Position numbers and translations under genes: made by a program. The notes beneath the pieces are model-generated. The model did no database searches, was not told the DNA's origin, and saw only the letters and a list, made by a program, of their open reading frames with translations. From contig NMRA01000079.1 in the NCBI GenBank assembly GCA_002633005.1, positions 852,558 through 916,557 on the forward strand: DNA of 64,000 nt. Reading direction: 5' to 3'. This DNA comes from Phoronis australis. Lineage: Eukaryota > Animalia > Phoronida. Positions 1,005-60,701 of this stretch are shown in pieces (the stretch's first letter is position 1; every line of letters begins with the position of its first letter).

Positions 1005-4000
1005 GTGCATGTTATTATTGCTATTTTCCCGGGTACATGTCTGCGACAGGTGGTCACAAATTCCCAAAAGATTGAGATTACACTGTACCACAGGCGTGGA
1101 GAATTGCGGTCAAAAGGGTCAACCAAGTGACAAAAGTGTGTGGAAGCCGAAGCCTCACGCCCCGTGACGTGTGTGTGCTCTATGCTTTTCCATTGAGAGA
1201 CTACGTAATCACGTTACTTATTTGGTAAGTTTTTAGCAATTAAGTTTCTATGGGCATCGCTCAGTGATGTTATGCCCACCAGTTACACCAGTGAATAACG
1301 GGTTTATTCAGTGGAATTAAGTGTTTGCTTTCAGAAACTCACCCGGGAATGCTCCCAATATAAGAGGTGTATGTGACGTGGCGTTTAGAAGTCAAGGGTG
1401 AATTTTTCATAGCAGTTACTTAACAAACTATGCTATGTGCAATAAAATTCTCTAGATGAGTGAGTTTCCTCATTTTATAGCGGACACCACCCCCAGGAAT
1501 ACCAGATTATAGTTACCCAATTAACGTGAATGAGCTATTCTGACAGTAAACTCGTAACATTGTATTGGAATAAATATTGACACTTATAAACACATTTTAG
1601 GTGTCATGAAAAATACACATTCCTAAATCACTTTTAGCCTGTTTCACATATTTTAATTCATAATTTAAATAAGGATTGGGTACATAAATTATTAGTTTCT
1701 GCATATAAACACGAAGATGAAATGTCAAATAAGTCCTGCTTTACAAAAGTAGTTTTGTCGTGTGTTTTTTATAATTTGCTAATATTTCCCTGCTATTCTG
1801 TTAGAAGTGAGAGAAAAACCAGCCGCTTAATCGCCTATTTTACCTTTCGACAAAGTGAAAAGCAGTCCTTCAGCAATAACCTGAGGAATTGAACCTCTCA
1901 ATTCAGAAAGTCAGCCCTTGCATCGGGAAAATTATAATTGTTTTTAACAAATAATGTTGTTCCGTTGTATGTATGTGGTTGTTCAGTTTCCATTTCGTTT
2001 TTAAATACACTGATAATTGATTATTCTCAAATCTTGTACATAGCAGGTTCTCATCCAGCTAGCTACACTTGAAAACATACTTTTCTTGCATGTGGAACTT
2101 TTGTTGTAGACAAGGTAACACAAAACATTAAACTGTTCAAAGGCCTTCTTAAGAAAGCTCTAAAATAGTTTCACACATAAATCAAATGCAATCAAAGGGA
2201 ATACCTCGTTTTATCGCCAGACATTTCTATAGGTCAACAGGAAAATGACAATTCGTAATCAGTAATCACTTCAGCTTCATAAAGAAGCAACACAACTGCT
2301 TTAAAACTGAAGAAATATTATGGTTTGAATAATTAGTGAATAAATTGTTTGTTAATTTAAAAAAATAATCGATCATTAAAGTGTGACATTAACGGGCTTT
2401 TTACAATCGATGCAGCCCCTGAATGCCATTTCCGCATAAAGCGTACCAAGTTGAATGGTTTTTATCAATAGTATAAAGCCTTTCTTTTGAAAGGAAAAGT
2501 TAATGTCACTCAGTGAGAAAGGACAGGAATTTATAGCCACTAGGATCGAGTTTCAATGGCCTATAGAAGCGCTTGTAAAAATGGTCCAGTTTCTTTAAAG
2601 TCCACAATTAGATCCGTGAAGGTAAACACAACATCATATCACTTGACTTGCTTTGTGCTCAAAATCAAACCCTCAACTAGACCAGAGTGTTACCAGGTCT
2701 TCTTTAGCTTCAGGCTCTCATGTTTCTTCCAGGTAAGGAAATGAGCCATTGTTGTCCACACACGACTCATTGCCTATGAAAGGACATCCTCACCAATGAG
2801 GCTGGCTGGTGTAGCAGTCAGATATAGTTCGTCTTCACACACAAACAATCCACTGGCACATTTTCGTATGGTAACTTAGTACTTGCTTGTGCATTGTGCC
2901 ATGCACCACTGCTGGTGTGTGGACGACATGCTTAGGGAAGAGAAAGGAGTAACAATGCTTGTCTATGTTGCGGCTTGATGTGGTCTGAAAAATGTCACTG
3001 AACCTGGAACAAATGTTGAAACATGAATAATTAAATACGTCAAGTTGGGTCAAAAACGGTACCCTTAATTTTCAGAAATATGATATGGTAACTGCTTTAC
3101 AATTTCACACAGAATTATGTAATTACCATTTCAAGAAAGCAAGGGTGTGTATACATGTAAAATAAGTTTTAATTTTTAGAGAACTGCGTCTTTATTTTTC
3201 ATTCCTGGCTACAACAATGCTTTAAACGCATCACTTGTCTGCAAAATAAGTAAGTTATTTGAGAAAACTTCAAACTTTTGTTACCCATTTCCAAGCATTT
3301 TGATTTTTGATACTTTCAGCAATTATAAACACCGATTACAGATTCATGGGTTTGTCAAGCACACTTCTGGTCTAAGGCTGAGGGAATCGTCTCTGAGATA
3401 TTTTATTTTTCTTCTAATAGAGGATATGAAAATTTGGGTCACTTAAAAATGATGGATAATCTTTCTACTGTTTAAGAGTAATTAAAAATCCTAAGGCATC
3501 CTTAATTGCATATTGGCAGTAAGAACAATTTGTTCAAATATGACCTCACTCGTATGTTCACATCAAAACTGTAACTTTCACATATGAATTTGTAAACGAC
3601 TTGCAACATTTCAAGGCATGAGTTAAGACTGTCCAGTTATTGGGAACTAAGAGAATGTAATATATTTTAGGGTTTTACAATGGATAGCAAATAATTATAT
3701 GAAACGCGAAAGAACTTCATGCAGGTTAAGAATTACCTCACCGTGCTCTTTCTCCTAGACACTATTACCTGTTATTTCCACACATTCAGTTGCACCAAAT
3801 TTTACAACTCCAACCCCCTATGCCGACCTCCCGCTAAGGACCTGAATAAGTAAATTATATACCTTTCTTTAAAAATAGCTGTCCCTTTTCAAAGGCTTTT
3901 TTCTTTGTCTCCGATATAGAAATTAGGCTTTGACAACAGATTTGCACTGAAAAGGAGGATCTTTCTGGTTAGCTGCCTGCAGTCAACTGCTTAAAACCAA

Positions 4001-4682
4001 TTTATGTCCATTCATGGCGGTTGCAGAAGCGATGCATACCTCCTCTGCAAGGTACTAGCTCTCAAGCCTAAAAAACAAAGGTCAGGTGAAAACAGACGTG
4101 ATATAGTTCCATGTGTACAACGTGTACAAAACTTCCGGAGGACATAGGATAGGGAGTAAACAAATAGTCTAATGAATGGGTATTTGTCACGTACCCTTAT
4201 GGCTTAGATTGTAGTGTTACCTCACTAACAAATATCGAGTTAACAGCATAAACATTCAGCATTGATTGATGTAACTGTCACTGATAAAATGGTTAGAAAT
4301 TATTCCAAACATTAACAATACTGCTTTGATATACGAAAAGATCCCGAGTCAAGTATCGTATCACACGTCAGTCATCACAACAAACAATGATTAACCGACT
4401 GGCGACTGCCGCGAAGTCGACATCGGCCAGTACCTCAATTAACAGGTATCAGTATTGTAAACATGGAATAACCGTTAAAATATACACAAACCTTACCTTT
4501 GTATAAAGTCATGCTTACTACCCCTCGTAGAAGCATCCTTTTCACGCAATCAAAGATTCAGTTGGCCCGGCTGCAGGACATTTCACCGTGTATTTAAAGG
4601 GCTAGCGAAATCGAGGCTGCTTAATATATCACCACTAGTACACGCGCGCCATCTAGTAATGTGAAGATTGTCGAATAGCCCC
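1005..4682 (+). mobile_element. Decayed ISL2EU-like (PIF/Harbinger-related) DNA transposon: THAP remnant (+), YqaJ/lambda-exonuclease remnant (-)
   Basis: THAP-like GGHKFPK at ~1050. Minus-strand YqaJ-like pieces at 2555-3005 (TPAVVHG, GLFVCEDELYLTATP, LKLKK, FYKRFYRP). Terminus cgaatagcccc at 4672-4682; inverted homolog at 39077-43044. Confidence 0.65.
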
Positions 4683-16121: not shown

Positions 16122-17069
16122 CTTTTGACTACGGTAAGCAAGAAGGACTATTACGAAATACTAAGAAAAATTATATACTTTAATGGTGGACTAAAATGAC
16201 CACCGGAGACAACTCCAGCTGGAACAACACTAATCGAAGGCACGAGTTCAGGGGTTCAAACCCCCCTCGGGACAGAATCAACAATACAAATTTAAAAATG
16301 TCGGCAGAAAAACGAAATCAGCTACTAAAAGCCAAACAAATCTTACACGGGAGGAGGGAAACCCCCTAACGACTTTCCCTCAACTCCGCACCTCGGATTC
16401 ACGCAAATCCTAACCCCCTCTTTACTGATAACGTATAGATCTGTCACTGTTAATGCATGGTCATTATCATCGCGTATTTGTAAATATATGAAGGTGATAA
16501 TTGAAAAGTTACCAATGTTTTTCATTTTGTTCTCATTTTTATACAACACAATTCAGTCCTTAAGTATCTGTGGAAAATTCCGAAACAAGAATGACCTCGA
16601 ATTTTAAAATTACCTCGTACTCACGCGTCAGAAAGAACATACAGAAATTTCTTTTGGTTTCTCAGGCCGCAAATACGGTGGTGTTTGAATTGATTGGACG
16701 AATTACATCAAGCGTGAGCCCTGCAGTTTATTACATTTTGTATAATACATCCATTTAAAATGAGTGAACATTCTGACAGGAAACAAAATAGTCCCTGGGG
16801 ATTGCAACTGGCTGTAGTACTGTATTTGTTTGATGAGTAAGTGGGATTACTTGAATGGAGTATTTCTAGGCAATTGTTCCCTTTGCCACTGACCAAACCT
16901 GGCAATGAAACTAAGAGGATTAAGCTCATTTTTGAACGACGTTGTCACTTTTTGCGCGCGTCCACACACATACAATTATTATATAAATGTATTTTTGTGT
17001 GACTGCCTAAAACCGCAAAATCTCTTGGTCTGTTTGCACCGATCTCTAGTCTACATGTATATACACTGT

Positions 17070-17111
17070 CACGACGTTTCGGTCGGTCTCTTCTCCGACC
17101 ATTGTCAGGTG
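17070..17111 (-). ncRNA. Second hammerhead motif, core-mutated (CTGACAA), perfect stem II
   Basis: Minus strand CAC-CTGACAA-T-GGTCGG-AGAAGAGA-CCGACC-GAAA-C-GTC-GTG. Confidence 0.55.
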
Positions 17112-17251
17112 TTCCCGCGTTCTTAGAAGAACGAGCACGGATACGTGGTACACTCATGGTGTGATTTCTTGTGTGACTTCTGAAACTGCAGATCATTAGA
17201 GTCCAGCACCTCAACCACTACAAAACAGAGTCATGCAATTAGAAATTGCAT

Positions 17252-17333
17252 GACTCCGTGGTGTAGTCGTTAAGGTGCTGGACTCGAATTATCTGTAGTT
17301 TCAGAGGTCGTGGGTTCAAATCCTGCCTCGCAC
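17252..17333 (+). mobile_element. tRNA-Ser-like Pol III head (SINE-like; not a functional tRNA)
   Basis: A box tggtgtagtcg; TTAAGGTGCTGGACTCGAA resembles tRNA-Ser(CGA); B box GGTTCAAATCC at 17313-17323; acceptor stem does not pair. Confidence 0.65.
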
Positions 17334-17392
17334 AAAAAATCACACCATGAGTGTACCACGTATCCATGCTCGTTCTTATAAGAACGTGGGAA

Positions 17393-17427
17393 CACCTGAC
17401 GATGGCCGGACCGACCGAAACGTCGTG
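17393..17427 (+). ncRNA. Minimal type I hammerhead ribozyme motif (Penelope/retrozyme-like)
   Basis: CAC-CTGACGA-T-GGCCG-GAC-CGACC-GAAA-C-GTC-GTG: conserved core, stem I CAC/GTG, palindromic ACGT stem III. Confidence 0.65.
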
Positions 17428-17856
17428 ACATTGTATATAGACTAGAGTTCGGTGTAAATAGACAAAGAGATTTAACAATAGTTGTATTTATGTGTGGTTG
17501 ATTATTGCCGCAATCTTTGATCGTGCGTCCAATCGTCGGGTCAAAGATATTTTTAAAAGAGGGGTCCAAGCCAACAATTTGAAAATTCTAGATTTGATAT
17601 CACACGAATCAAGGGAAAAATGTTTGATCTGGATCCCTTTGACCACCCCTTGGATCCGCCTGTGTCGTAACGTATTTCAACTACTTGTAGGATCATAATG
17701 AATTTTAGCAGGTAAATAAATCAAGCAAAAGTGCTAGTGTCAGTGTTAGCTTGATGAAAACTGACAATTGCGCTTTTCTATTTCTCAAAAAGTGTTCGCT
17801 TTGGTTTCACAATTTAAAAGTTAAAGCTCTGCTTAGGGTCTTCATTTTTATTTCAG

Positions 17857-18077
17857 CAATGATGGCGCACATGTCGCCATATTCGATATAAATACGCTTT
17901 GGGGTACCCACCTGGAACAAGAACTATTGTCCTAGGATAAGAAAGTGAAATTTTATACGGTTGACGTTAGCGACGAGGATCGTTGCGCTGAGAGCGTTCA
18001 AGCTGTTGCAGACGACAATGACGGCGTCGTGCATTTCCTGGTTAATTGCTGCGCTTACTTTGGTGGTGTGGTTACGC
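17857..18077 (+). pseudogene. SDR A exon 2 (contains premature TAG)
   Basis: tttcag acceptor, NDGAHVAIFDINTLWGTHLEQELLS*DKKVKFYTVDVSD...HFLVNCCAYFGG, gtgagt donor; 221 nt. Confidence 0.8.
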
Positions 18078-31200: not shown

Positions 31201-34200
31201 CCTGAGTATGCTCACAAAATGTATGGCGCTTGATTTGTCATCGAAAGGAATACGTGTGAACGCTGTTAGTCCGGGCTTCGTCTTCACACCATCGAAGGTA
31301 AACATTTTCTTCTTTTTGGCGGAAGTTTCTCGCCAACACGAGTACAGTAGGGCATGTCTTGGGAATGTGTGCGCGGAGACTCTGCTTATGCGTGCAGAGG
31401 TGTATGTATCTGCTAGTCTTACGCTACAGTAGTTGAACAAATTTTTTCAAAAAATAGGCAAGTCTCTGCCAGACTACTTTAAGCATACATGTATATCAAA
31501 ATCTTGCCTGTTTTTTAACAGCTTGGTCGAAACCCCGTCGCAATCAAGCGGGCGTTTTGTCGAATTTTTCTCGGAATTCAAGTAGATTTAATTGCGCCTA
31601 GCTGCCGATTGCTTATTTGTAATGGACTTGCAAAGTTAGTTGTTGCGATTTTGACGAGATTTATTCAGTAGAGTACCGCTTTCTAGTAAAAAAGATATTA
31701 TGCGAGGTTTTGTGCACTGAAACGTCGTCGGCTTATGATGCTGTCTAGTTTAGTTTGAAAACTATTGTAAAAACGGCCGTGATTCGTGGTGTGGTGGAGC
31801 AAACAAATTTGAGATGAAAGGAGAATCTTTTTTAACATTTACCATTACCGCTAATCTGTCAACAGTATCGGGACCTCACCTTTAGGGTATAATGGCAAGA
31901 GAATACAGTGTGTAGCAGGCTTAAAGGAGAATGCAACCCGATTTAATTAGTCTTTTTTGCCGTCTTAATCGGTCCATATCCACATCGCCGCGCATACGGT
32001 CGACCTTACCTTGCCAAGAGGTGTCGCGTTAACCTGTGAGGAAGGTGAGAAACGACGCTAGCGACTTCAGTGGTTCATCTGCCGAATGCCGCTATGTTGC
32101 GGTGCATCGTTCCCGCTTGTCCGAACTATGCAGCTGGGAGGAAAGCGGGAATATCGTTTTTTCGACTTCCTCGAGAAACCGAAATGCTTGGGAAGTGGCT
32201 AATGGTAGTGAAGAATGAAAGGTACGCTGTAAATAGCAAGTATGAGGCCGTGAAACATCTCCGTGTCTGTGTCCTGCAGTCGTCGACAGTGCCTGACGAA
32301 TTCCGGCTTACCAAATAACTATCCAATCCACGCGCCTCTCTAGTGTTTCTTCATCACTGTATTCCTGTTCGAATTGATAATCTGTGAAACTTAACGATCC
32401 ACCTGCGAAGTCTTCAGTAGGGATCGACTGATGAGCTCTTCAAAATGAATTATTCTCACCCTAACCAATACTTATATAAAACTGAAACAAAATCTGCCTC
32501 ATTAGATGCAATTTGTAATGCCTTTGGAGTGTTCGTGAGTGCAAATGGTTTGAGAAGCCAGCAATGAATAAATCACTGCGTTACCGGCTTTAGGTGCACT
32601 AAATCTAATTGACGGGACACCGAGGCCGTGTGAGCTCATGCTAATTTAGTGTTTGCTGGCAGAAACTGTTGTGAAACAACTCAGTCGATTTCCACCCCAC
32701 GGCCTGGTGTTAGAGGAGTCTTTATTTACATTTACATTATTAAAATAATGATTGTCAATGTATAACTTTTCCCTTGAACGTGCTGTGGCCAAAGCGGAAC
32801 CTAAATTCGCGGCTACCGACGAGTAAGTAGATTTGCAGTTTCGTGGGTAATTCACCAAGATAATCACGTGTGCATTACTTTGGCTCACTAGTATAGTATT
32901 TTCTTGACTGGAAGTTCAGTTTCTTACTTTGGATGGTATATGTTCGTGATGTCTGATCAGTTTCCGAGCCACTGGCCGGGATAATGAGTCATCCGGCCGG
33001 CCGCGACGGGCCTGATCGGGCTCCAAGCCACTGGCCAAGATAATTAAGCGTTTTGTGTGTTTCATTGAACTCAAAAAATCACAAGTCTAAACAACACAGA
33101 TCTGGGTTCTCCTGTCTGTATCTCACGGAAAATACTTCGAATTCGTCTCCGAACAGACCCCAAACTCCTGATACGGAGCTTATTGGCATGCCTAACTTTG
33201 GAGGTTACGGTGTGTCCAAATTCCAATAAGTCCGTAACATCGAAATAAAATAACACGTTTTTATAAGAACTCGGTGTATTTTTAAGGGTTTTACATCGAA
33301 GTTTGATGATTTATTGGTGTTAAAGGATGAATTCAAGCGATAAGCTGACACCAGTAACCCGTGTTGTGAACTGCTGATCAGACTGCGTGTGAAACCAATT
33401 ACGTCATTGGATAATTTCAACCCACCCGTCTGCCGTCAGGTGTCAGATAACGCAACCGTACGTGCCGTTATGGAGTAGAACTAGTCGATCTAAATTGATA
33501 CAAATTAGGTTGTTTTTTGGGTGGCATGTTCCTATAAATAGCATTTAGTTATTGAGCTTAACAGCATGGGAAATGGCTACGCTTCTGTTGTGATGACAAA
33601 AGACACGTGAAACAGAAAGGGTGTACAAAATGACTTTATTATCAAATACTGTATAATTTAATTTGAATCTAGCTATGTAAAAGCTATTATTATCTTGAAG
33701 AGCAGAGAGGAGGTCCAAAGTGGTTCGGTTTTCAAACTATTTGCGTTTGACTGTATAAAACTTTTAACACCTTGCATTCAATTGTAAGTGCAGGGCTAGT
33801 TATACATTCAAAATAATCGTGTGGGTCTAGTACGCACTAAAGACAAGTAAGTGCGCATCAGCTTTTACGGAGACGCTCTGTCTTGATAAATTTTGGTCCT
33901 GGTGTGATTGTTGTTGGACCTCAGTTCTATCGCGACAGCGAAGTCAATGCATGTACACTTTACTGCGCTCACTAAATGCTGATGTTACAGAGAGTCAGCG
34001 ATTTTGCACTTAAATAATGCCACAATGCCCTTAAGGCATTTTTACGCTGACAGGATTTTCACGCAAGTCGACAAAAAAGCGCCCACTGCTCAACCAAGAG
34101 TAGCTAGCGAATTCTTGGGCACATCAAGGGCTTGATGGCGCAGTCACAGATTTATGGGCAAGTCGCTCTTTATGGGCGAGGTCGAATGTGTACCTTTGGA

Positions 34201-35526: not shown

Positions 35527-36583
35527 TTAATTTACAATCACAGTAGTACTAGTGTTATAATTTCAGAATTACTTCAGGAATAAATTGGAGTTATGTCGCA
35601 CTTGGCTAACACTCTAAGGTGCCCCACTGGAACTGCGTGGTTACAGTATGTACATTACACTAAGTGTGGTACGCGCACGGCGCACCTGTACAACGCAATG
35701 CTGTTGGCGGGGATTCTAACGACTTACTTCTCATGTCTTTAACAGTAGATTTACGCTTTCCTTCTCCCTTACGGAGTGTTTGCTCAATTATTTTTGCAAA
35801 ACAGGAAATACATGAATATGCTTCCCGCGGAGGAATCTACAGTAGGTTCCGTCAAATTGGATGATTATTTTGGCGGACTCTGATATTATCTCGAGTCGGT
35901 GTTGATTGGTATTGTCATCTCGGATATACATGTACTTGTTATAACTACAAGTACAGCAAGACATGACCGTGGCGACTGGGCGATACTTTTTATTGAGTAG
36001 GAGCGGCGTGCGGGTGTGACGAACGCACTGATACGCCGTAACTCTGGAGGCAGAAAACTTTGGAGAATTAGCGACTAGTCGGATATGGCTGCGGTCACCG
36101 GGTCACTAGAAGAGCTGGTAAAGGACAAACAAAACACGCAACAATTATATGTGGAACGGGCCCCAATATTCTTAGAAGAACTAATGAACTGAAAGCTTTG
36201 AACTCGATTTCATTGAAAGTGGGTTCATTTGTACTCAACAAAAACGGCCAATGTCGATGTCAGCGATGTTTTATATGCTGTTTTTATGCGATGTTGCAAA
36301 AGGGTTAATATACCATATTCCCTTATCTGTCTACAACCACGCGTGTTGTTGACAGCTAGCTGCAACACAAAAAAATGTCGCCTTATGAGACACGTGACTT
36401 CACGCCCATTAATACTAGAATGTCCAAACACTGTCTTTATTTACATGTGCTTCGGACTAACGAACATTGACTAAAACCAATTTTAAATTATGCTTCATCT
36501 TAAAACATAATAGAAAGAGAAAGTGCATGTTTTTGTAGTCCGAAACGCCGACCGTCAGCTTTTTCGGACTATTGAGCCTTTAA

Positions 36584-38461
36584 AGGCTAATGCCACCCGA
36601 TTTAATTAGTCTTTTTTACCGTCTTAATCGGTCTGGGGCCACATCGGCTCGTACACGGTCGACATTATCTTGCCGAGAGGTGTCGCGTTAGCCTGTGAGG
36701 AAGGTGAGAAAGTCCGCAGCGACGTCAGTGGTTCGTATGCTGAGTGAATTCCGCCATGGTGTGGTGTGTCGTTCCTGCCTGTTCGAACTATGAAGCGGCG
36801 AGGAAAGCGGGTACATCGTTTTTTCGATTTCCTCGAGAGCCCGAAATGCTTCAGAAGTGGCTCACGGCAGTGAAAAATGACAACAGTACGGAGTTCATAC
36901 CAAGTACGAGGCCGTGAAACATCTCCGTGTCTGTGGCCGACATTTCGTGGACAGTGATTTCACTGACGAATTCCGGCTTGCCAAACAGCTCATACCAGGG
37001 CAGAAAAAGCAACCGAGGCTGAAGTCAGATGCTGTGCCTAGTGTGTTTGCGTCCTTCAGGCAGGAAGCAAAGAAACGTGGATCAGTTGTTTCCATTATGG
37101 TGTTGTTAGCGCACTGATACCATGAGACGGTTTTCGGAACTATCCATGTGCTCCATTGTTTGTGCACGTTCACGGCGCCTGTCTAATACTTCTTGATCAG
37201 TGTACTCTAGCAGGTTCGAACTGATATCCTGAGAAAACTAACGATCTACCTGGGAAGTCTTCGTCAGATGAGTACTCCTCCAAGTCGGGATTGCGAGTTG
37301 CCATGTTGACGTTTATTACTCAGTAAGCGTTCCGTTTCAAAATGAATTATTCTCACCCTAACCGATACTTATATATAAAACTGAAAGAAAGTGTGTCCCA
37401 TTAGATGCAATTTGTAATGCCTTTGGAGTGTTCGTGAGTGCAAATGATTTGAGAAGCCAGCAATCAATAAATCACTGCGTTACCGGCTTCAGGTGCAATA
37501 AAACTAATTTGACCGGACACCGAGGCCGTGTGAGCGCAAGCTAATTCAGTGTTTGCTGACAGAATCTGTTGTGAAACAATAACTCGATATTCCATCCCAC
37601 GGCCAGGTGTTAGGGGAATCTTTATTTACTTATACATTATTCAAATAATGATTGTCAATGTACAACTTCTGCCCTGGCGGTTCTGTGGCCAAACGGGAAC
37701 CTGAATTCACGGCCCCCGACGATCGGCCTTAGTAGATTTGCAGTTTCGTGGTTTCACCAAAATAATCACGTGCACATTACTTCTTTAGCTCAATAGTATA
37801 GTATTTTCTTGACTTCAAGCTTAGTTTCCAACTTTGGATGGTTAATGTTTGTTGTGTCTTCAGTCCGGTCGCGACGGGCCTGATTGGGTTCCGAGCCACT
37901 GGCCGGGATAACGAGTCAGTCCGGCCTCGACGGGCCTGATCGGGTTTCTAGACACTGGCCGGGATAACAAGCGTTTTTTGTGTTTAGAACTAAAAAATAC
38001 AAGTCTAAACAACACACATCTAGGTCAGTCCTACTGTCTGTATTTCACGGAAAAATACTTAGAATTTATCTCCGAACAGAACACGAACTCCTGCTACGGA
38101 CCTTGGTAAATTGGACTGCCGAAATTTGTTGGCTACGGTGTGTCCAAATACCAATAAATCCGTAACAGTGAAATAAGACAACACGTTTTTATAAGAACTC
38201 GGTGTATTTTTAAGGGTTTTACATCGAAGTTTGATCATTTATTGGTGTTAAATGATGAATTCAAGCGATAAGCTGACACCAGTTACCCGTGTTGTGAACT
38301 GCTGAACAGACTGCGTGTGAAACCGATGACCTCAGTGGAAAATTTCATCACCTCCGTCTGCCGTCAGGTGTCAGGTAACGCAACCGTACGTGCCGCTATC
38401 GAGGAGAACTACTCGATCTAAATTGATACAAATTAGGTTGTTTTTTGGGTGGCATGCTCCT
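36584..38461 (+). mobile_element. Kolobok-like non-autonomous element with THAP remnant (copy 2)
   Basis: TTAA|AGGCTAATGCCACCC...GGGTGGCATGCTCCT|TTAA. THAP from ATG 36756: MVWCVVPACSNY...FFRFPREPEMLQKWL, frameshift, LRVCGRHFVDSDF...LKSDAVPSVF. Confidence 0.8.
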
Positions 38462-39076: not shown

Positions 39077-42000
39077 GGGGCTATTCGGAAAATTTACATT
39101 AACTAGAGGGCGCGCGTGTACTAGTGGTCATACATGTACATGTAGAAAAGCAGCCTCAATTTCGCGAGCCCTTTAAATACATGCAGCCGTGCCAACTGAA
39201 TCTGAGATTGCGTGAAGGGTGCTTCTATGAGAAGAAGTAAGCACGCCCAAAGGTAAGGCTCGTGATTATTTTAACGATTATTCCATGTTTATTCTACTGA
39301 TGCCAGTTAACTGAGGTACTCGCCGATGTCGACTTCGCAGCAGTCGCCAGTCGGGTTAATCTTTGTTGTGATGTGTGTTACGATACTTTACGTGACACTC
39401 GGGATCTTTTTGTACATCAAAGCAGTACTATTGTTTGGAGTTATTTCTGACAGGTTGATCAGTGAAGTAAAATCAATCAATGCTGAATGTTTATGCTGTC
39501 AACTCTATATTGGTTAGTACAATCCAAGCCCAATGGCAAAGGGTACGTGACAAATATCCATTAAGCTATTTGTTTACTCCCTATCCTATGTCTTCCGGAA
39601 ATCTGTTACACGTTGAAATGGAATCCATCATGCCTGTTTTCACGTGACATTTGGTTTTTAGGTTTGAGGGCTTGTACCGTGCAGAGGAGATTTGCATCGC
39701 TTCTGCACCGTCCCTGAATGGACAAACATTGGTTTTAAGCAGTTGACTGCAGCTACAACCAGCAAGATCTTCTCATCCAGTGCAGATCTGTTGTCAAAGC
39801 CTACTTTCTATATTGGAGACAAAGCCTTTGAAAAGAAACAGCTATTTTTAAAGAAAGGTATGTAAGTTATTTAGTTAATTACTTATTCAGATCCTTAGAG
39901 GGGATTGGCATAGGGGGTTGGGGTTGTAATATTTGGTGCAACTGAATGTGTGGAAATAACAGGTAATACATGTTTGGGGGAAGAGCATGGTGAGGTCATT
40001 CTTAACCATCATGAAGTTCCTTCAACTTTATTTCATGAAACTGTTTTGCTATCAATTGTAAACCCATAAAAATATATTAAATTTTCTGAATTCTCAGTGA
40101 CTGAATAGTCTTAACTCATGCCCTGAACAGTGGCGGATTTAGAGGGGGGCCAAGGGGGCCATGGCGGCCCCTAAAATTCTCCCAGATTCCATTTGGCAGT
40201 ACGGGGGTACGAATGTCTGACGGACAAAATCTCGGCTATTACTCTGACCTGCCTCCCCAACTCAAAATCCTCGATTCGCCCCTGCTGGAATGTTGCAAGT
40301 CGTTTATAAATTCAAATGACTGCCATTTTTTGTGAAAATTGCATTTTTGATGGTGCCTTACGATTTGTAATTACTCCTAAACAACAGAAAGATTCAAGAT
40401 TATCCACCATTTTCAAATGACCCAAGTCTCCATATCTTCTATTAGAAGAAAAATAAAAAAGTCTGAGATACGGTTCACTTGAAGCCTTAGACTAGAAGTA
40501 TACTTGACAGATTTATGATTTTGTAAGTGGAGTTTAAATTTGCTGAAAGTATCAAAAAGAGCAAGGCTTGAAAACGGGTAACAAAGGTTTGAAATTGTCT
40601 CAAAAACGTGCATAATTTGCAGACAAGTGATGCGTTTAAAGAATTATGGCTACGAATGAAAAATAAAGACGCAGTTTTATGCAATACTTATTATAAACAC
40701 CCTTGGTTTCTGAGAATAGTAATCATTTAATTTTATGTGAAATTGTAGAGCAGTCACTATTTCATATTTTTGAAAAACAGGGTTAGCATTTTTGACCCAA
40801 CCTGGAGTACTTAATTATTCATATTTCAATATTCGTTCCAGGTTCAGTAATATTTTAAGTCCACTTCAAGCCGCAACATAGACAAGCTTTGTTACTCCGT
40901 TCTCTTCCCACAGTACTTCCACACACCAGCAGTGCTGCATGGCACAATGTAGAAGTCAGTGGCCCTGGAGAAATGTGAATTGCAGTCCTAAGTTACCATC
41001 AGACAATGTGTCAGTGGACTGTTTGTGTATGAAGAGGAACTTTATCTGACTGCTACACAAGTCAGCCTCGTTGGTGAGGATGCCCTTTCATATGCAATGA
41101 GTCATGTGTGGACGATCCTTTCTTGGAAGAAATATGAGGGACTGAAGCTAAAGAAGACGTAGTGACATTCTGGTCTAGTTCAGGGTCAGATTTTGGCAAC
41201 AAAACGAGTCAAGTGATATGCTGTTGTATGTACCTTCAAGGATCTAATTGTGGATGTTATTGAGGCTGAATGAGGTTGCATGAAATCCATGTGCCGAAAC
41301 TGGACCTTTTTTTACAAGCGCTTCTATAGTCCATTGAAACTGGATCCCAGATAAATGAAGACCACATGCATCTGGTATAAATACCCGTGCTTTCTCACTG
41401 AGTGACAATAACTTTTCCTTTCAGAAGAAAGGCTTTATACTAATGGTAAAACATTTTTAACTTGCCACAAATTAAGAGGAAATGACATTCAGTGACTGCA
41501 TCGATTGTCTTATCGTCAGTTGTAGAAAGCCCGTTAAGCACTTTTATGATCGAATAAATTTTTCATCAACAGGCACGTTTGTCACTAATTGTTAAAACCA
41601 CAACATTTCTTCAGTTTTAAAGCCCCATGCAGTACAGTTGTGCTTATTCTTTATAAAGCTGAAATGATTACCGAATACGCTTGCGAATTGTCATTTTTCT
41701 GCTGACCTATGGAAATGTGCAGCGATCAAAATGAAGTATTCTATTTGTTTGAACGAGATTCTTAAGAAGCCCTTTGAACAATTTTAAGTTTTGTGTTAAC
41801 TTGTCTATAAGCAAAAGTTCCACGTGCAAGAAAAGTATGTTTTCAATTGTAGCTAGCTGGATAAGAATCTGTTATGCACAATAATCGAGAATAAAAAAAT
41901 ATCAGTGTATTTAAAAACAAAATGTCAAACTGAAAACCACATACAACAAAGAACAACATTGCTAAAAACAATTGTAATGTTTTCCAATGCAAGGGAGTCC

Positions 42001-43044
42001 ATAATCAGGCATATTAAGCGCTGCATTTCTGAATTAGGTTCAATTTTCTCAGGTTATTGCTGAAGGATTGCTTTTCACTTGATCTAAAGGTAAAATAGAC
42101 GGTCAAGCGGCTGGTTTCAGTCGTTTTCTCTCACCTGTAACAGAATAGTCAGAGAAATAATTAAAAATAATAAAAGAAGACACAAGAAAAAAACTACTTT
42201 TGTAAGGCAGAACATACTTGACGTTTCATCTTCACGTTTGTATGTAGAAACTAATAATCTTTGTACGCAAATCATATTTAAAGATCAAAATTAAAATATT
42301 TGAAACAGGCTAAAAGTGATTTAACGATGTGTATTTTTCACGACACCTAAAATGTGCTTCTTATCTCAACAAGTAAAATTCGTTCCAATGTAATTTTACG
42401 AAATTAATTGAACAGCTTATTCATGTTAATTCCGCAAATAATGTGGTAGTAGCCCTGGGGGTGGGGGCCGCTATAAAATAAGAAGACTTACTCATCTAGA
42501 GAACTTTATTGGACATAGCAAACCTTTGAAGAGAACCTGCTGTGAAAAAGACACCCTTGACTTCTGAGTGTCACGTAGCATACACCTCTTATGTTTGGCG
42601 CATTCCCACCCAGGACAATATGTGAATATGTGCTGCTAGCCTACCCGGCATCCGAGTCCCGGGTGGGTTTCCGAAAAGAAACACTTAGTTCCACTCATAA
42701 ATTATTCAGTGGGATCACTGCAGGTGGAGATAACGTCGATGTCGATAGAAACTGGTTGCTAAAAACTTACCGAGTAACGTTACAGTATGTAGTCTCCTAA
42801 TGGAAGCAAATAGCACACACAGGACTTCGGCATCCACACATTTTTTGTCAGTTGGTTGACCCTTTTGATCGCAATTCTCCACGAATGTAGTAACCTTAGG
42901 TCTTTTGGAAATTTGTGACCACCTGTCGAAGACTTGTACATGGGAAAATAGCAATACGACGTTTTTTGGTAACATTTCCGTCTTTTTTGCCAGCTGTTTA
43001 CATGCAGACAGCGACGCATGCGCAATTCAATCACCACTAGTACA
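39077..43044 (-). mobile_element. Decayed ISL2EU-like DNA transposon, second copy, inverted
   Basis: AT|GGGGCTATTCG terminus; subterminal inverted repeat tgtactagtggt(c/g)a at ~39117 and ~43031-43044. THAP-like ORF 42780-43037(-) SYCYFPMYKSSTGGHKFPKDLRLLHSWRIAIKR; YqaJ remnant ~40840-41335(+). Confidence 0.7.
40128..40284. mobile_element. Short MITE nested in the ISL2EU-like copy 2
   Basis: CAGTGGCGGATTTAG...GATTCGCCCCTG; absent at the matching position (~3610) of copy 1; reverse-complement homolog at 62871-63028. Confidence 0.75.
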
Positions 43045-59725: not shown

Positions 59726-59828
59726 ATTCGTGGACATTAGTGATCTTATCTGTACTTTGATTCCGTCATTTGCCAACAAAACTTTGACCTTGCTATCAAG
59801 CGTGGGACTTCGTGTATGAATTGCAAAC

Positions 59829-59971
59829 ATGGAAGTTTTAAAAGCCTATGACAGGCGCTTTAAGCAGCCAGAGTTGGACTCTCCTCTGACCAAGTCCCGT
59901 TTTAACAACAAAGTTGTTATTGTGACAGGTGGTGCCTCTGGTATAGGCCGGGCAACAGCGGAGAGGTTTTG
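59829..59971 (+). CDS. SDR paralog D exon 1 (rest of gene presumably beyond the window)
   Basis: MEVLKAYDRRFKQPELDSPLTKSRFNNKVVIVTGGASGIGRATAERF; 143 nt; TG|gtaag; no exon 2 seen before 64000. Confidence 0.85.
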
Positions 59972-60701
59972 GTAAGTTCGCTGGGGAGCACACGGTCGAT
60001 AACATTCTCAGTAGTAAAAGGTAAGGAATGCCCGCTAGAACAAGAACATCTGTTATCCATTTTGGCTTGCGAATATTTGTTTTCTATTCCTAGGCGTGTT
60101 AAGATTTTGTTCTGGGGATTTGGGCATGTGAACTAAACCCCAGCTCTAAGCACCTGTCCTGGGAAGGTTCTTCCTTTACCACTGTGAATATTGTGTTTGC
60201 ATTGAAATCAACCTGCAACGCATAACGGTGAATTGCGCCCACGACTGCACCGTAAAGGTTGTGCATCTAGAATTATAGAGTGTAGTGTCATAAAATGGCC
60301 ATTAGATGCCGCAGAAAATGCCGGAATCCCTCATTGGAAAAGAGCCGTCGTCTCTCTAACACGCAACCACTTTTACAAAATATCCGAGAAACTCTCTGAT
60401 GATCTCCGAAGATACAGTGGCAAACATGCCCATCGATACGAAGTTGTCTTTACTGTATTTCCGCGTGACGTCATCGTGTACACTAGAACATATAATGCAT
60501 ATAGAGCTTTTGTAACGTATTTGGCAAGTTTTTCTCAATTTTGAGTGAATCCATAGACTATAGTACATGTACCGCCGACTCTGCATACTTTCAATGGATG
60601 AAATCTTTGAACTTACGCACAAGCCCTTACGTCATTATTCACTGGCGACACCTGGCTAAATTATCTGGTGTAATTTCCGGCAAGTATGTCGTCTGCTAAT
60701 C

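Follow-up and report, generated by a model that had tools for sequence, protein, structure and literature searches.

Host locus and anatomy of the inverted pair

The analysed window, a stretch of 64,000 nucleotides from Phoronis australis, contained a cluster of three five-exon SDR genes (5817-54545), with a further exon 1 at 59779-59997. Two inverted repeat copies formed a palindrome in the first of these tandem genes, within its intron 1. Exon 2 of this gene (17857..18077, + strand) carried an in-frame TAG (17933-17935) where the paralogues have Leu or Gln. Exon 1 of the same gene copy was duplicated (at ~5.8 kb and ~13.0 kb), the nearer, second copy being devoid of ATG. The best homologues of the SDR proteins were 54-67% identical and included a bacterial one. 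The initial annotation had proposed that the repeat would form long dsRNA in the SDR pre-mRNA; a hairpin does lie in SDR intron 1 but, because of the nonsense codon of its host copy, this idea may concern a pseudogene. The locus is a decayed insertion, intronic to a gene copy that a nonsense codon interrupts, and shows no sign of a host function. Elsewhere in the window, a 1.5-1.8 kb repeat was present twice (31921-33481 and 36580-38409, 83-93% identical) with internal GC-rich tandem units of 56-59 nt, and a 3-kb element without long ORF was present as two inverted copies (1345-4501 and 39248-42607, 80-89% identical in blocks).

The arms of the palindrome (17018-17240 on the - strand and 17244-17473 on the + strand) were identical at 189 of 210 aligned columns, displayed three indels and were separated by a 3-nt loop; their BLAST identity, gaps counted, was 78%. 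The 536-nt palindrome folded into a single long hairpin (z = -30 versus 100 shuffles). Rfam miRNA matches at 17187-17297 merely reflected this hairpin and were discarded. BLAST detected no further copy of the unit elsewhere in the 64-kb window. Information on the family was drawn from Logan contigs of four runs of one sample (including X1 and X2), which are possibly from the source sample and are not independent. The right copy (17250..17486, + strand) was composed of head, spacer, hammerhead and tail: depth rose from bin 17247-17255 and fell past 17480, while one contig reached 17486. Its 3' part (17428..17486, + strand) included a T run (17471-17473), for which the family and the left arm have four T. 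A 13-nt tail followed and stopped where sister copies display the 5' arm of an AC-rich stem-loop (stem-loop read by eye). The left copy (17018..17234, - strand) stopped at the T4 run, with no tail, and its head lacked 20 nt including the B box, so that this box was kept in the right arm only, as had been noticed initially. Between the two copies, a central palindrome (17235..17249) consisted of a 6-bp inverted extension common to both arms and the 3-nt loop.

The head-to-head palindrome was initially delimited as 16962..17497. The inverted pair itself was confirmed, but its outer limits were not, the element ending at ~17018 and ~17486. The outer 55 bases (16962-17017) rather belonged to the flank or target site: they comprised an AT-rich self-hairpin (16962..17001, DNA fold -6.9 kcal/mol), which accounts for the earlier boundary, and one copy of a direct repeat. 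This degenerate 30-nt repeat (16988..17017 and 17483..17512, both + strand) lay directly outside both arms, its right copy overlapping the last 4 nt of the element. Its copies were identical at 23 of 30 positions, a score equalled by 0.12% of 4987 random pairs and 0.02% of 5000 shuffles in a test run after the repeat had been noticed. It represents a possible target-site duplication, though long and diverged (77% identity versus 90% for the arms); those of rotifer Penelopes, as reported in passages of PMC3846280, are shorter (8-10 bp).

Besides the 6-nt extension, the arms shared alleles at 17360, 17436 and 17443 which are in the minority in the family, and this combination favoured one template. 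The same common features, together with a centre spanned by no listed contig, would also suit a single insertion mirrored later by a local DNA event, or a mirror created by the assembly. Such an origin is very improbable given the 21 differing columns out of 210 and the three indels between the arms. In addition, X1 contigs (possibly from the source sample) read both outer junctions without difference, the mirror ended at the ends of the element, and inverted joints were encountered at other loci.

tRNA-like head and hammerhead motifs

The right copy opened with a tRNA-like head (17252..17334, + strand) identified by a box scan and by an Rfam tRNA match below gathering. Its A box (17259-17269) and B box (17313-17323) were situated near the 5' end of the unit, as in tRNA-derived SINEs. 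The Rfam match (17258-17334) was weak (18.8 bits, gathering 29, E 2.1) and ARAGORN found no tRNA at the head; with relaxed scores this program returned noise everywhere and the results were discarded. The B-box site was the only one in the 64-kb window, for an expectation of 0.3 per 64 kb (10 resampled sequences), and displayed one mismatch to the SINE consensus taken from passages of PMC8969392. Spacing between the boxes was 43 nt, above the 30-35 nt of the SINE consensus, and the A box improved with family-majority letters (17268 being G in 99% of depth). In the Rfam alignment, the head displayed a short variable loop and 13 nt instead of 3 in the anticodon loop. The initial assignment to a tRNA-Ser(CGA)-like sequence could be kept as far as tRNA likeness is concerned, on account of the boxes and the weak Rfam match; given the short variable loop, the 13-nt anticodon-loop segment and the 43-nt spacing, the Ser(CGA) identity was not established. 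From the length of this segment, the head may derive from an intron-containing tRNA with a short variable arm, and not from a tRNA-Ser.

A match under the Rfam cut-off could also mean that the tRNA segment is a passenger in an ordinary Pol II-transcribed Penelope pLTR, the short copies being 5' truncations in which Pol III plays no role. Depth in the contigs was ~2x higher over the 3' part than over the head, as expected from 5' truncation. This reading is nonetheless improbable in view of the A box improved by the family majority, of the nearly consensual B box, and of the starts of both arms and of a joint at another locus (17251), which all fell at most 10 nt from the first base of the head.

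The right copy contained a minimal type I hammerhead (17393..17427, + strand) with an intact core, a 7-nt deletion in loop II, an ATG at 17402-17404 and a predicted cut after C17424. Its stem II folded at only -0.4 kcal/mol, in agreement with the conserved core and weakened stem II described initially. The strict hammerhead pattern matched once in the 64-kb window and in none of 100 shuffles, whereas the loose core pattern alone was not beyond chance (one match versus 0.81 expected). Rfam hammerhead models did not match the palindrome.

In the left hammerhead (17111-17070, - strand), a 6-bp stem II of -9.2 kcal/mol was accompanied by a G8->A change at 17103. This change had been correctly reported; the stem II described along with it as perfect proved to be a minority state, since the U-A pair of the left arm is a 10% allele, the third pair being a C.A mismatch in the family majority (17098, 90% of depth). 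The expectation of an intact consensus was borne out for G8, which was present in 86% of X1 depth, G8->A being private to the left arm, and for loop II, whose 7 nt missing from the right arm were restored by loose ends and insertions of the family; it failed for stem II, where the C.A mismatch prevails.

Variants of at least 8% were listed at none of 15 core places versus 18 variable places in ~236 nt, which is not significant and not beyond neutral expectation, and the variant table was incomplete, omitting 17268, which another table gives at 99%. The loose-end consensus of X1 (17 contigs) displayed CpG decay in stem III. On these grounds, neither selection on the ribozyme nor covariation was demonstrated.

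As their anatomy indicates, the two ribozymes of this locus are divergent, one on each strand; any one transcript holds a single sense motif, base-paired with its complement, so that a cis dimer is impossible. Each motif is also damaged (right stem II, left G8->A), and this locus would not act as a dimer. When the ribozyme of either arm was cofolded with itself, the minimum-energy structure was not the canonical dimer; the stem III duplex alone amounted to -3.1 kcal/mol. In the right arm, the frame opened by the stem II ATG ran for 8 codons before closing, and in the left arm for 18; the letters carried by the family majority at 17090 and 17436 would likewise close it.

The repeat family in sequencing contigs

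The right arm was matched by 547 contigs in X1 and 459 in X2, which established for this one sample that the unit, a repeat of 230 bases, is abundant and not single-copy. Summed X1 depth ranged from ~7,000 to 45,000 over 17256-17471 versus 15.8 in the flank; this ratio roughly corresponds to 350-1,100 copies, summed depth being no true copy number. Other copies retained the predicted linkage between tRNA-like head and ribozyme, as seen from bridging contigs such as 17258-17430 and 17261-17442. All listed bridging contigs began at 17250-17261.

Three of the seven listed joints changed strand (17251|17416, 17259|17409 and 17362|17438), so that the inverted arrangement was encountered at other loci too. 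In two of these three, the short side equalled the exact distance to 17473. They were read as putative head-to-head joints to 5'-truncated copies. This count relied on the right arm alone as reference and leaves aside opposite-strand joints defined with a two-arm reference. None of the seven listed joints was head-to-tail (go-back), in contigs that break in repeats, and no tandem copies were present in the window.

Between 31 and 33 contigs of one sample displayed long loose 3' ends. Beyond 17473 these agreed at 0.50-0.51 (null 0.36) and appeared, by eye, to form a 5-bp stem round an AC-rich loop. The right copy stopped at the first base of this loop, the left copy earlier, at the T4 run. Upstream of 17250, loose ends agreed at 0.66 (seven contigs) and 0.67 (eight contigs), for nulls of 0.47 and 0.45 and 99.9th percentiles of 0.54 and 0.51. 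Such agreement fits four of seven, or five of eight, contigs sharing a common sequence before the head, although these are seven to eight contigs of one sample and duplicated loci could produce it. If about four of seven contigs do share this sequence, there may be a longer Penelope element that has the unit as its terminal repeat. The upstream consensus was open in one frame and loosely resembled a Penelope C-terminus, but this resemblance was too weak to be used.

These boundaries bear on whether the unit stands alone. A non-coding SINE or retrozyme comparable to Sm-alpha, born from a single fusion of a tRNA promoter to a captured Penelope pLTR, would be copied only in trans, and its head would occur on no coding element. 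The closed stem II ATG frame, a T4 run situated ~220 nt from the head and the start of listed bridging contigs at 17250-17261 all suit this alternative. Passages of PMC2770079 and PMC6765202 present Sm-alpha as a hammerhead-bearing SINE of tRNA origin, and a passage of 10.64898/2026.07.22.740005 reports that animal retrozymes derive from PLEs and are non-autonomous. It is less easily reconciled with the common sequence upstream of the head in about four of seven contigs, with copies that go past the T4 run and carry a PLE-like tail, and with the absence of head-to-tail joints among those listed, since Sm-alpha and retrozymes are tandem. We regard this origin as a tentative option with less than even chances.

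A second abundant repeat was located ~60 nt to the right of the palindrome (17544-17636). Its summed X1 depth reached 98,000 and its loose ends contained inverted motifs with G/C runs, giving it a MITE-like appearance.

Relation to Penelope elements and other hammerhead repeats

According to passages of PMC4209133, the minimal hammerhead of metazoan PLEs is recognised from a base left unpaired ahead of stem II, a G10.1-C11.1 pair and a palindromic 15.2-16.2, and hammerhead pairs are found 100-700 bp apart on opposite strands. The right hammerhead agreed with these features, including the bulged base and the spacing of the pair. The same core pattern was found in public sequences with at least 121 matches in at least 117 loci, the metagenome part of the scan covering 37 of 64 parts. 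Among the matches listed, a G followed one extra base in 107 of 121 and an ATG was found there in 10 of 121; divergent core pairs on opposite strands occurred at 7 of 118 listed loci, some of which represent the same element. A Pfam search of 33 of the 58 upstream frames (at least 90 aa, listed loci) returned two RVT_1 and one DDE domains and no GIY-YIG. One of these loci, L041, displayed an RVT_1 frame upstream of its hammerhead core (E 2e-7), and the C-terminal part of its protein, which we take to be GIY-YIG-like from its motif, matched L117 (E 2e-17) and L019 (E 7e-14). In other animals, RT/endonuclease frames thus precede this core. A PLE protein used as query matched nothing in the 64-kb window, in which no ORF of a coding parent was seen. 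A and B boxes at most 300 nt upstream were associated with none of the 121 related cores among the matches listed, all from other organisms (115 with at least 200 nt available), and the tRNA-like head thus appeared special to this repeat family.

The inverted pair resembled in several respects the inverted pLTRs of EN+ PLEs, as described in passages of PMC3846280, PMC4209133 and, for PAc, PMC11167929. A minimal type I hammerhead with a bulged base and a palindromic stem III, opposite-strand core pairs 100-700 bp apart, a head-to-head inversion whose junction forms a palindrome, a putative tail borne by one arm, an ATG where stem II begins and an AC-rich 3' stem-loop are common to both. Head-to-head copies with 5' truncation are reported in passages of 10.1101/2021.04.23.441226 and PMC3846280, the latter also mentioning palindromic junctions and a tail carried by one of the arms. 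Here, the right arm was 13 nt longer than the left one at its 3' end, for an optional PLE tail of 30-40 bp, and the family's loose ends beyond it agreed above their null. In passages on PAc (PMC11167929), the ORF begins at stem II, as does the ATG found here (17402); an AC-rich stem-loop, in which copies also end, is the internal starting place of reverse transcription, and the enzyme cuts AT-rich DNA. Two differences from EN+ PLEs emerged with respect to the same sources: the present repeat opens with a tRNA-like A/B-box head, whereas the described pLTR promoter is TATA/Inr-like, and its stem II ATG frame is closed, with no ORF seen in the window.

Likeness to Sm-alpha and Sj-alpha of Schistosoma (passages of PMC2770079 and PMC6765202), for which Pol III transcription has been proposed, lay in a short repeat of high abundance whose tRNA-derived head precedes a type I hammerhead. 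Their hammerheads are canonical and often in tandem, in contrast to the minimal PLE-type motif, the dispersed and inverted copies and the PLE-like tail encountered here. With animal non-LTR retrozymes (passages of PMC7229834, 10.64898/2026.07.22.740005 and PMC7761336), the unit shared a short non-coding format, a type I hammerhead and kinship to PLE pLTRs; these retrozymes are however defined by tandem units yielding circular RNA, while no tandem joint was listed here. The searched passages of these three sources contained no mention of a tRNA head on retrozymes, and the passage concerned in 10.1101/596502 merely mentions short non-autonomous Penelopes. Titles, abstracts and searched passages yielded no description of a tRNA-headed Penelope terminal repeat, although supplements, subscription papers and Repbase may hold such entries. 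Hammerhead SINEs derived from tRNA (Sm-alpha, Sj-alpha) and retrozymes as PLE derivatives are already known; a tRNA head on a Penelope-type terminal repeat was not found described.

Taking these characters together, we favour, with a probability of about one half, the reading of the palindrome as two head-to-head copies of a probable Penelope-type pLTR, likely resulting from one insertion, whose tRNA-like head would be a Pol III promoter feeding short copies. A Pol III-driven, self-cleaving, non-autonomous element, possibly mobilised by Penelope, had been put forward in the initial annotation. Its Penelope connection was strengthened by several independent hallmarks (bulged base, head-to-head junctions elsewhere, AC-rich 3' stem-loop, TSD-like repeat), but its non-autonomous status became doubtful, as some copies run upstream into common sequence.

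Transcription by Pol III would begin at ~17250. A Penelope RT/endonuclease, acting in trans or supplied by a longer parent, would nick AT-rich DNA, and a self-primed or template-jumped second copy would then give the head-to-head pair with its small junction palindrome. Both copies would later have decayed independently, leaving each ribozyme damaged. Cleavage by intact sister copies would require a dimer formed through the 4-nt palindrome of stem III, or the help of a protein; the PAc ribozyme, as reported in passages of PMC11167929, cuts only with protein and is dispensable for insertion in vitro. The lack of any ORF in the window and the closed stem II ATG frame count against the favoured reading, and the T4 run ahead of the tail is one that transcription by Pol III would need to pass. 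Also against it are the small number of contigs behind the upstream agreement, the length and divergence of the flanking 30-nt repeat, the lack of A and B boxes upstream of the 121 related cores listed, and a core conservation no greater than neutral expectation.

LINEs are the elements that SINEs are described to parasitise, and which promoter and ribozyme roles the terminal repeats of Penelope play is not yet settled. A repeat with a tRNA head and Penelope insertion marks would be either a SINE-like family copied by the Penelope machinery or a Pol III-driven Penelope. In the latter form, a coding Penelope would carry a tRNA-derived Pol III promoter in its terminal repeat, driving both the autonomous element and hundreds of SINE-like ribozyme copies. 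This is unlikely on present evidence; if true, it would show how Penelope ends can lead directly to hammerhead SINEs of the Sm-alpha kind. The ~240-nt unit is a compact, testable substrate for the cis needs of the Penelope protein and for the timing of the minimal hammerhead cut.

Some other sequences were examined for a similar layout. In viral contigs, the 19-nt family motif matched once (L118), with no further similarity, and a Penelope endonuclease query gave one weak locus (L119) with neither hammerhead nor boxes; both were set aside. L117, a contig in a bacterial MAG, displayed a Penelope-like endonuclease frame and a hammerhead, and is likely animal host DNA in the bin. Rfam applied to 20 of the 117 listed loci gave one tRNA-like match, and this locus (L058) was rejected as an instance of the same layout, the match being downstream and on the opposite strand. 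It corresponds to a tRNA-like SINE head (L058:1687-1762, 26.1 bits) situated ~150 nt downstream of a Penelope-type hammerhead.
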